A stretch of 64,000 bases of DNA from Mustelus asterias. Lineage: Eukaryota. The notes beneath the pieces were generated by a model. It made no database searches and was not told the DNA's origin. It saw nothing but the letters and a program-made list of their open reading frames with translations. The position numbers and the translations under genes are program-made. Positions within the stretch are counted from its first letter, which is position 1; each line of letters begins with the position of its first letter. The stretch spans positions 108,810,001 through 108,874,000 of the forward strand of contig NC_135808.1 of assembly GCF_964213995.1 (NCBI RefSeq), given 5' to 3'. This document shows positions 42,932 through 47,900 of this stretch, piece by piece.

Positions 42932-43408
42932 GGATTTAATGCAGGTGAAACAAAGTGGCGGGAGCAAGTTCTCACCTGCCATATTGGATCACCATTCCTG
43001 CCAGAGCCTGGCATGCAACCGATTTGTATCCTATTAATAAGATGAAGGCCTGACTGAAATCGTTTCGCCCCACCCTCCACGCCCCCTACACGGCAGCAGG
43101 AAATCACGCTGAACCAGAACACATCTGGCCCAACATGGCATGAACATGTCAGCAGTTACCTGAAGAATGCCTGGTGCTGCTTGTGGAGATCAGACAAGAA
43201 GATGGAGGCCTCCAGCAACTAGGCGCAGGAACACCACATACAGTAGGTGAGCGGAGCAACTACGACTTGGGTCTTCTGACTTCAGGATCTTCCAGGAGAT
43301 GGATCTTATATCTTCAACATTGGGTCGGTCGCTGTCCGGCACCTTTTAAATATGGCGCGCGGATATGACGGCAGAGCACGTACCATCCAACCTGCCCTGC
43401 CACATGAT

Positions 43409-43773
43409 TTTTTAAAAATACTTTTCCAATTCAATCAAATCAAATCCAATTCAGAGTCTCAACAAGTTGAGACATTTCAGATCCAGGCTGACAAGACAGG
43501 GCAGGCGACCAAACCACCCTGTCCTGGGCCCGATCTACATGAGCCAAGCTGATTGGAGAAGGGGGAGGTTCCTCCTCCAAGACTTAGGCTCATTTGCATC
43601 CTAGCCAAAAGGCCGAGATGCCGCTTTTAAAAATTGCTTCATATGAAACATATGAAGCCTCAGCGTAACCTAATGACCTCAACCAAGTGCAGCATCCTCT
43701 CCATGCTACACTTGATCTTAGCCAAAAGGCCGAGAAGCGAACAGATACTACACTTGATCTTAGCCAAAACGCC
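43409..43773 (-). mobile_element. U2 snRNA-headed, structured SINE-like retroelement
   Basis: U2 nt 11-45, nt 2-36 and an internal nt 7-23; multiple hairpins; short A-tail; TSD GCCACATGAT 43399-43408 / 43774-43783. Confidence 0.8.
43706..43773 (-). pseudogene. RNU2: Tandem U2 snRNA 5' fragments (not a functional U2 gene)
   Basis: TCGCTTCTCGGCCTTTTGGCTAAGATCAAGTGTAG matches vertebrate U2 as recalled; Sm site and 3' stem-loops absent. Confidence 0.9.
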
Positions 43774-43816
43774 GCCACATGATACATCAGGAAACCCTGG
43801 ACATAATTCATCAGGA

Positions 43817-46159: not shown

Positions 46160-46880
46160 TAGTGCGGGGGATAGTGGTGTGACAGAGAGGGAGGGGTGTG
46201 TGACAGAGAGAGGTATGTGTGTGTGTGTAAAAGAAAGAGAGGTGAGTTTGTAAGAGAGAAGGGTGTATGCGACAGAGGAGAATGTGTGTCTGAGAGAAGT
46301 AGAGAAGTGAGTGTCTGTAGAGAGAGGTGAGTGTGTGTTTGTGTGAGAGAGATGTGTGTGTGTGTGAGAGGGGTGTGTGCGTGTGTGTAAGAGAAAGAGA
46401 GGTGAGTGTGTGAGAGAGAAGTGTGTGTGTGACAAAGAGAGGAGAATGTATGTCTGAGAGAGGTAGGTGTGTGAGAAGTCCGCGTGTGTGAGAGCGAGAA
46501 GTGAATGTGTGTGTGTGTGTGTGAGAGAGATGTGTGTTTGTGTGAGAGAGAGAGGTGAGGGTGTGTGTATATGTGAAAGAGATATGTGTGTGTGTGTTTA
46601 AGAGAAAGAGAGGTGAGTGTGTGAGAGAGAGAAGGGTGTGTGTAACAGAGAGGAGGGAGTGTGTGTCTGAGAGACGTAGGTGTGTGAGAAGTGAGTGTGT
46701 GTGAGAGCGAGAGGTAGGTGTGTGTGTGTGTGAGAGAGAGGTGTATGTGTGCATGTGTGTTTGTGTGTGAGAGAGAGGTGAGAGTGTGTGTACATGTGAG
46801 AGAGAGATGTGTGTGTATGTGTGTGTGTGTGTGTATATCTGAGTGGTGTGTGTGTGTGTATATGTGACAGAGAGGTGAGT
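46160..46880. repeat. Degenerate (GT)n/(GA)n compound microsatellite
   Basis: Recurring GAGAGGTGAGTGTGTGT-like units. Confidence 0.9.
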
Positions 46881-47309
46881 TTTTTTTCCATTCATGGGAC
46901 ATGGGCGTCGCTGGCTGGCCAGCATTTATTGCCCATCCCTAGTTGCCCTTGAGAAGGTGGAGGTGAGCTGCCCTCTTGAATCGCTGCAGTTAGTGTGCTG
47001 TGGGTTGACCCACAATGCTGTTAGGGAGGGAATTCCAGGATTTTGACCCAATGACTGCGAAGGAACGGCAATATATTTCCAAGTTAGGATGATGAGTGGC
47101 TTGGAAGGGAACTTGCAGGTGGTGGTGTTCCCATGTATCTGCTGTTCTTGTCCTTCTAGATGGAAGTGATTGCTGCAGTGCATCTTGTAGATGGTATACA
47201 TTGATGCTACTGAGCGTCAGTGGTGGAGGGAGTGGATGTTTATAGAAGTGGTGCCAATCAGGAGCTGCTCTGAAAGCTTGTGATTTCAAATAAAGCTATT
47301 GGACATAAC

Positions 47310-47900
47310 AGAGAGAGAGACAGGTCTGTGTCTGTATGTCAAAGAAAGCTGAGTGTATGAATGAGGTTCGTGTGTGTGAGTTAAGTGAGTGAGGGAGATT
47401 CATGTGTGTGAGTGAGGTTTGTGTGTGAGAGAGGTGAATGTTTATGTGTGAGTGTGAGATGAGTGTGTGTGTGAGAGAGAGGTGAGTGTGTGTGAGAGAG
47501 CCAAGTGTGTGTGTGTGAAAGAGAGAGGCGAGTGTGTGTGTGTGTGTGTGTGTGAGAGGTGAGTGTTTATGTGTGAGTGTGAGATGAGTGTGTGTGTTAG
47601 AGATGTGTGTATATGAGTGAGGTGAGTGTGTGTCAGAGAGGTGAGTGTGTGTGTGAGAGTTAGAGGTGAGTGTGTGTGTGAGAGAACGAGAGGTGAGTGT
47701 GTGTGTATGAGAGAGGTGAGTGTGTGTGTCAGAGAGGTGAGTGTGTGTGTGAGAGTTAGAGGTGAGTGTGTGTGTGAGAGAACGAGAGGTGAGTGTGTGT
47801 GTATGAGAGAGGTGAGTGTGTGTGAAAGAGGCTAGTGTGTGTGTGTGTGAGAACGAGAGGTGAGTGTGTGTGCTTCTTTTTGGTTGTGTTCTGTGTGTGC
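47310..47900. repeat. Degenerate (GT)n/(GA)n compound microsatellite with about 95-bp higher-order duplication
   Basis: 47621-47714 is repeated at about 47715-47810. Confidence 0.88.

Follow-up and report, generated by a model that had tools for sequence, protein, structure and literature searches.

A young U2-headed retroposon family in the shark Mustelus asterias, with a probable Keno-like LINE partner and copies inside U2 snRNA genes

What is the 365-bp unit that lies on the minus strand at 43409-43773 of the 64,000-nucleotide stretch of Mustelus asterias DNA analysed here (the window), and where did its pieces of U2 snRNA come from? An initial annotation, made from the letters alone, had read it as a candidate U2-derived retroelement bounded by a 10-bp direct repeat, and the repeat is indeed present, with copies at 43399-43408 and 43774-43783. 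The same reading let the unit start with exact U2 nt 2-36; the exact match exists, at 43740-43706, but the unit begins 33 bases earlier with another U2 piece. This extra 5' piece is U2 nt 11-45 (34/35 identical), and against the genome's own U2 gene the window head spans U2 nt 2-39 with a single mismatch, at nt 37. The roughly 85 nt described as non-U2 after the head open with a stretch complementary to the U2 head. A second, internal U2-like head (nt 7-23 exact at 43618-43602; 22/24 over nt 4-27), a short T/A tail at the end of the unit and a hairpin-rich body were all recovered as proposed, the last with strong folding in each of four sister copies folded (z -4.95 to -8.55). Read on the minus strand, the unit consists of U2 nt 11-45, U2 nt 2-39, about 80 nt, U2 nt 4-27, about 150 nt of hairpins and the T/A tail, with these features:

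43774..43783, minus strand: 5' copy of the target-site duplication, 10 bp (direct-repeat search)
43739..43773, minus strand: extra 5' U2 piece, U2 nt 11-45; this copy is among 33 double-headed insertions (U2 alignment)
43703..43740, minus strand: family head, U2 nt 2-39 (nt 37 changed), ending at the insertion point of a LINE in U2 genes (U2 alignment)
43657..43695, minus strand: arm predicted to pair with the U2 head, with many G-U pairs; the preceding loop varies between subfamilies (folding)
43636..43658, minus strand: small perfect hairpin whose length depends on the subfamily (inverted-repeat search)
43625..43635, minus strand: internal U-rich/A run, in 99/102 copies (copy alignment)
43598..43621, minus strand: internal second U2 head, nt 4-27, 22/24, predicted to retain U2 stem-loop I (U2 alignment, folding)
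43451..43597, minus strand: 3' body, predicted to form three hairpins whose stems are conserved and whose loops are hypervariable (copy alignment, folding)
43409..43450, minus strand: tail of short 5-base repeats, a terminal motif weakly resembling the LINE 3' end, and a T/A run (word counts, alignment)
43399..43408, minus strand: 3' copy of the target-site duplication (direct-repeat search)

The U-rich/A run may be the old tail of a left monomer or a candidate Sm-site-like motif. A perfect octamer at 43590-43597 (minus strand), which I take to be a snRNA distal element motif, overlaps the end of the internal head and is present in 95/102 copies; it is absent from both U2 upstream regions scanned. 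Identity of the unit as a U2 gene or pseudogene is ruled out because the U2 match stops by nt 45, with no U2 sequence past that point in a comparison with the U2 gene; its Rfam U2 score is 42.4 against a cut-off of 46, and an Rfam scan of the whole window gave no family at or above its gathering score. The window contains this one copy only, its long reading frames resemble LINE fragments or simple repeats, and long degenerate GT/GA-rich tandem arrays occupy 46177-47872.

The unit does not have a single-copy body. Thousands of genomic word matches place it in a U2-headed retroposon family, and the existence of this multi-copy family is certain. A 28-base word from the tail has 4,876 exact matches in the genome, its reversed control 0, and an 18-base word from the 5' body has 2,352 against 0 for the control; a copy number of about 5,000 is a lower bound, since it is counted from exact word matches. 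A body search returned 1,838 candidates, of which 40 were scored and proved 97-100% identical, and judged by such identities the family is young. Copies are about 300-330 nt long and non-coding, with a short T/A tail, and the flanks of those viewed are diverse.

The body is consistently joined to U2, as the initial annotation had asked to be checked: a head accompanies all 30 best matches, shortened in two, and four of these 30 have one common flank and are a single insertion duplicated. An exact head piece of at least 12 nt accompanies 24 of the first 30 matches to the tail word on C1, and the other six comprise four copies 5'-truncated within the body, one with a mismatched head and one abutting an inverted copy; 11 of the 30 have a tandem neighbour. 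In a non-random sample of 122 copies the U2 head is found in 105, the other 17 being truncated within the body (8) or having a short or no head (9), and a duplication of at least 6 bp flanks 76/122, primary target duplications measuring 8-19 bp. Of the 105 outer heads, 39 begin with U2 nt 1 or 2 and 75 no later than nt 8. Clustering of 102 near-full bodies at 95.5% identity yielded 46 clusters (alignment A1 leaves out four mis-parsed representatives and has the window copy swapped for a sister copy).

What, then, supplies the U2 sequence, and what copies the element? An Rfam search located U2 arrays on C24 with units of 1,833 bp and 8,035 bp. The longer unit combines an intact U2 with a LINE that begins with a U2 head and has U2 nt 39-191 after its tail; at G000:C24:44.81-44.94 Mb (L051) this unit is tandemly amplified, intact U2 beside LINE-disrupted U2, and because ORF2 of that LINE holds a common repeat of about 350 bp, array turnover has copied a broken LINE. 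A second type of U2 gene, about 90% identical to the main type, forms an array of 448-bp units at G000:C21:28.045-28.082 Mb (L106-L110), in which most units are interrupted by the LINE or the SINE and one LINE has an uninterrupted ORF2 of 1,144 aa. The two U2 types have in common a block at about -80 to -40, around which the proximal element of U2 genes is expected (PMC4494074).

The LINE carries its own U2 nt 1-35 head and encodes an ORF1 with ZCCHC3-like RNA-binding and zinc-knuckle domains and an ORF2 with APE endonuclease, RT and zf-RVT domains. Its named protein relatives include 'transposon TX1' proteins and none of those returned is labelled Keno; one relative, with 76% identity across 49% of the query, falls into a cluster with a skate protein, as would fit a chondrichthyan host. 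In U2 genes its tail is followed by U2 nt 39, the 3' junction published for Keno (PMC6136364) and given as the same for Keno and Utopia (PMC4640811). With its APE endonuclease and this junction the LINE resembles Keno, a U2-specific member of the Tx1 clade, but U2 targeting is relaxed here, and the passages of PMC6136364 and PMC4640811 used for comparison mention no non-autonomous U2-headed partner. Since U2 follows none of the first 30 of its 282 exactly matched 3' ends, strict U2 specificity does not hold and I call the element 'Keno-like'.

SINE copies also sit inside U2 genes. Three are in array U2 genes, two of them on C24 and one on C21, and occupy the insertion point of the LINE, U2 nt 38/39; in two of the three a U2 promoter stands immediately upstream and nt 1-39 of the gene itself serve as head. 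A search for the SINE tail joined to U2 nt 39-52 gave 8 exact matches in the genome (6 full elements, 2 fragments) against 0 for the control and 0.0004 expected by chance. At C24:43.06 Mb, at the array end, a single gene reads promoter, U2 head, SINE, truncated LINE, U2 39-55, SINE and U2 39-191; its first SINE lacks the internal head, and its promoter differs from that of the array by a 12-bp gap and 3 changes. This gene is the one match to a type-A U2 promoter joined to head and body. Of 12 type-B U2 starts, 5 run into the SINE, 3 into the LINE and 4 into intact U2, the five SINEs behind type-B upstream sequence being one in the C21 array and four dispersed. The guess in the initial annotation that source copies might be transcribed from a U2 promoter thus has genomic support in copies found behind such promoters, from which they would presumably be read.

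In four dispersed insertions the outer duplication of the insertion itself (10, 13, 16 and 18 bp) surrounds U2-array DNA:

C1: LINE tail, U2 38-185, spacer, SINE, U2 38-58, LINE end; duplication 10 bp
C14: 1.65 kb with three SINEs; duplication 18 bp
C6: 90 nt of spacer; duplication 16 bp
C12: U2 33-53 before, U2 38-58 after; duplication 13 bp

Because array DNA lies within these duplications, RNA from U2 arrays containing the SINE was reverse-transcribed and re-inserted. Since the units start upstream of +1, they indicate read-through of the array, not initiation at the SINE's U2 +1. No outer duplication was found around a fifth insertion bearing U2-array DNA, on C8 (L119). A dispersed SINE at L117 (C6:82.47 Mb) and a dispersed LINE at L118 (C7:35.96 Mb) each include some 90 nt from upstream of type-B U2, and as the conserved -80 to -40 block is part of it they may be promoter-bearing copies outside the arrays.

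The explanation that I consider probable is that this is a young family of about 5,000 U2-headed retroposons, likely copied by the Keno-like LINE and likely transcribed from U2 promoters by way of copies that land in U2 genes. The cycle would begin with the step seen in the arrays, in which a copy enters a U2 gene at the LINE's junction and is followed after its tail by U2 nt 39 onward; because some copies sit there, the SINE likely borrows the U2 promoter. The transfer of SINE-containing array RNA to other sites, as in the four insertions above, would be a second step. Transcripts initiated at U2 +1 by this external Pol II snRNA promoter would give rise to the ordinary copies and would account for heads that open at nt 1-2 and stop at the LINE's cut site. 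The LINE's endonuclease and RT would then use the A/T tail for priming at relaxed RGY|A sites; most of the resulting copies would be dispersed and lack a promoter, and now and then one would land in a U2 gene and become a new source. Finally, the body is predicted to fold over the head and mask the arms for U6 pairing and the branch site, and this would prevent the RNA from taking part in splicing. That most copies originated from a U2 promoter is, as a part of this, quite probable.

Could a few master copies, read from unrelated promoters or by host read-through, instead have produced the same family with the same LINE partner, the copies in U2 genes being by-products? The three array copies are few beside 46 clusters among 102 bodies, the transduced units begin upstream of +1, and flanking promoters have been argued for the crocodilian SINEU elements (PMC4494074), all of which would suit masters of this kind. 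However, 39/105 outer heads begin at nt 1-2, the head stops at the LINE's cut site, and the shared upstream extensions noticed, short of a systematic screen, are U2 spacer DNA only, so I regard such masters as unlikely.

If U2 promoters probably provide the RNA, which enzyme copies it? The initial annotation had offered a U2-specific or an L1/Tx1-type RT; a U2-targeting Tx1-type partner has genomic support, and L1 does not. The target RGY|A is found at 20/47 primary SINE sites (p 1e-10) and 4/11 LINE sites (p 0.008) against a background of 789/10,034, and the U2 insertion site conforms to it. The L1-type target TT|A, tried as a candidate, is not enriched (3/47 SINE sites, 0/11 LINE sites). Of 30 LINE ends, 4 are stacked with SINEs at a shared site, SINE tails averaging one per about 750 kb. 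The 3' ends of the two elements give a weak co-terminal alignment of about 60 nt, for which shuffle counts are low with 3/7 LINE copies (1-9 of 1,000 for one copy, 5-18 for two) and not significant in the other 4/7. The Keno-like LINE is very probably the partner that copies the SINE.

Movement by L1, Utopia or some other LINE, with the Keno-like element merely a neighbour, seems to me quite improbable. Variable duplications and short A tails are compatible with L1 too, the likeness of the SINE tail to the Keno-like LINE is weak, and Utopia has the identical U2 junction (PMC4640811); but TT|A shows no bias at the 47 sites, the LINE copies in the mapped stretches of array all belong to one APE-type family, and the same-site stacks involve the Keno-like LINE.

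Several sources for the body itself were compared and rejected. The body is distinct from the LINE 3' UTR, and it showed no similarity to the LINE 5' UTR past the U2 head (scores within the shuffle range), as an internally deleted LINE would require. The non-autonomous derivatives of R2 are internal deletions of their LINE, and the SINE body here is not. Local scores against either U2 upstream region also fell within the shuffle range, as did those against U2 nt 40-191, save a weak 4/200 for the 3' body with type-B U2.

How does the body relate to the head in the RNA? Folding predicts, in 55/56 full copies, that U2 nt 28-35 base-pair with the first part of the body; the native U2 stem-loop I of the 5' head would thereby be displaced, whereas the internal head is predicted to keep it. 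When the head and the next 50 nt were folded, shuffled downstream sequence did as well in 0, 0, 1 and 16 of 300 trials for four copies, and the pairing includes 6-8 G-U pairs; a comparable fold-back at the LINE 5' end is weaker and marginal (11/300 and 135/300 shuffles as good). The pairing arm would cover the U2 bases that pair with U6 and the branch site. Within the body the stems are 98.4% paired and the loops free to vary, and strong covariation was not found: 2/45 pairs (4 cells) change on both sides, for which reason the function of the fold is to be read as predicted.

Conserved stems with free loops might also be expected had the family arisen from a functional gene for a U2 variant or a decoy snRNA whose retrocopies are the dispersed copies, and the U-rich motif between hairpins in 99/102 copies and the promoters that some copies adjoin would agree with it. 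Against such a gene, the search for a dedicated array found none (one type-A match and one type-B array copy), many subfamilies co-exist, the array copies are trailed by the remainder of the U2 gene they interrupt, and the Rfam score of 42.4 lies under the U2 cut-off of 46; I consider this origin very improbable.

The window copy is one of 33 double-headed insertions. The 30 examined comprise 29 SINEs and one LINE; their outer piece stops within U2 nt 41-57, the search pattern being blind to outer heads that end before nt 41; no match has an extra head that reaches through U2 nt 57-68. Insertion duplications within U2 genes end at nt 52, 55 and 58, and since the outer ends span this range the double heads may be transcripts of insertions in U2 genes. 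Template switching, favoured for the extra heads of SINEU (PMC4494074), stays an alternative because nearly every junction differs. Extended to the whole family as independent U2-chimeric retrocopies with no self-propagating element, template switching could cite the many different junctions of the extra outer heads, which it may explain, but for the main head it is contradicted by diagnostic head-body junctions common to many copies and by 30 unselected tails with nothing LINE- or gene-like upstream of the body, and its probability is negligible.

The closest described relatives are the crocodilian SINEU-1, -2 and -3, compared here by their published description (PMC4494074): these share a U2-derived head, a length under 500 bp, an A tail, internal U2 pieces and T runs, repeated addition of 5' snRNA pieces, tandem copies around the duplication, and a Tx1-type partner LINE that bears its own snRNA head and has a target preference in common with the SINE. 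The lineage differs, as none is reported outside crocodilians in the passages of that paper used here. Whereas the SINEU elements are described as old and without cDNA, the present family is young (97-99% identity); its partner still inserts in U2 genes while that of SINEU inserts in a Mariner element (Mariner-N4_AMi); and the copies behind the promoter in U2 genes and the retrocopies of array read-through have no counterpart reported in those passages (PMC4494074). R2, as treated in the same paper, likewise has no promoter of its own and borrows transcription from a multicopy target gene, but here the target is a Pol II snRNA gene and nearly all copies are dispersed. U2 retropseudogenes and U6/U2-L1 chimeras also join short 5' pieces of U2 to other RNA, though as one-off events by the same account (PMC4494074), in contrast to the one body with shared junctions found here thousands of times. 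A classical Pol III SINE was rejected as well: tRNA, 5S and 7SL gave no Rfam match, tRNA is absent in 4/4 loci, and internal T4-T5 runs are present. A literature survey made mostly of abstracts, with PMC5499810, PMC5786205 and PMC5381603 taken by passage, gave no shark report of a SINEU-like element; subscription papers, Repbase Reports and Dfam lay outside its scope, and a curated entry may exist.

How SINEU is transcribed is a question that PMC4494074 leaves open, and it becomes testable because a young family, a probable partner with an open ORF2, and promoter-adjacent and read-through copies share one genome. Borrowing of the U2 promoter would explain how such promoterless elements are transcribed; if true, a SINE can depend on an external Pol II promoter that it reaches by homing into the gene from which its head came. 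The range of snRNA-headed SINEs would be extended to a cartilaginous fish, and thousands of young insertion markers would become available; as a caution, counts of U2 'pseudogenes' would be inflated in such genomes. As a tentative proposal, which I hold at slightly less than even chances, this may be a second, independent origin of snRNA-headed SINEs with a self-renewing promoter: the LINE would drop copies into U2 genes, the Pol II promoter would supply transcription and a fresh U2 head, an evolved antisense arm would hide the splicing-active bases, and head homology would draw new copies 5' of old ones.

Tandem arrays of the SINE occur at L005, L019, L030, L064, L070, L176, L177, L186, L187 and other loci, and many of the duplications there extend into the head of the old copy. 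In 22 adjacent tandem pairs the upstream copy is nearer the young subfamily in 11, the downstream copy in 0, and the two are similar in 11. The arrangement of these sequences suggests that new copies are added 5' of old ones, perhaps aided by head homology. At G000:C1:82749853-82750104 three occurrences of the 5' body word lie 117 bp apart, as a tandem of the left monomer might produce, and at L005:2149-3010 a SINE copy is split by a LINE-like fragment of about 570 bp. A family-wide excess of A-to-G changes in the body is not significant (49 A-to-G, 57 T-to-C, p 0.25), and the heads show 14 A-to-G against 1 T-to-C, mostly at two sites. Clustered A-to-G changes mark 3/98 copies, at L060:1253-1537 (9/12 changes), L086:929-1228 (8/13) and L170:1552-1851 (5/8), and these copies look like ADAR-edited RNA fixed via reverse transcription.
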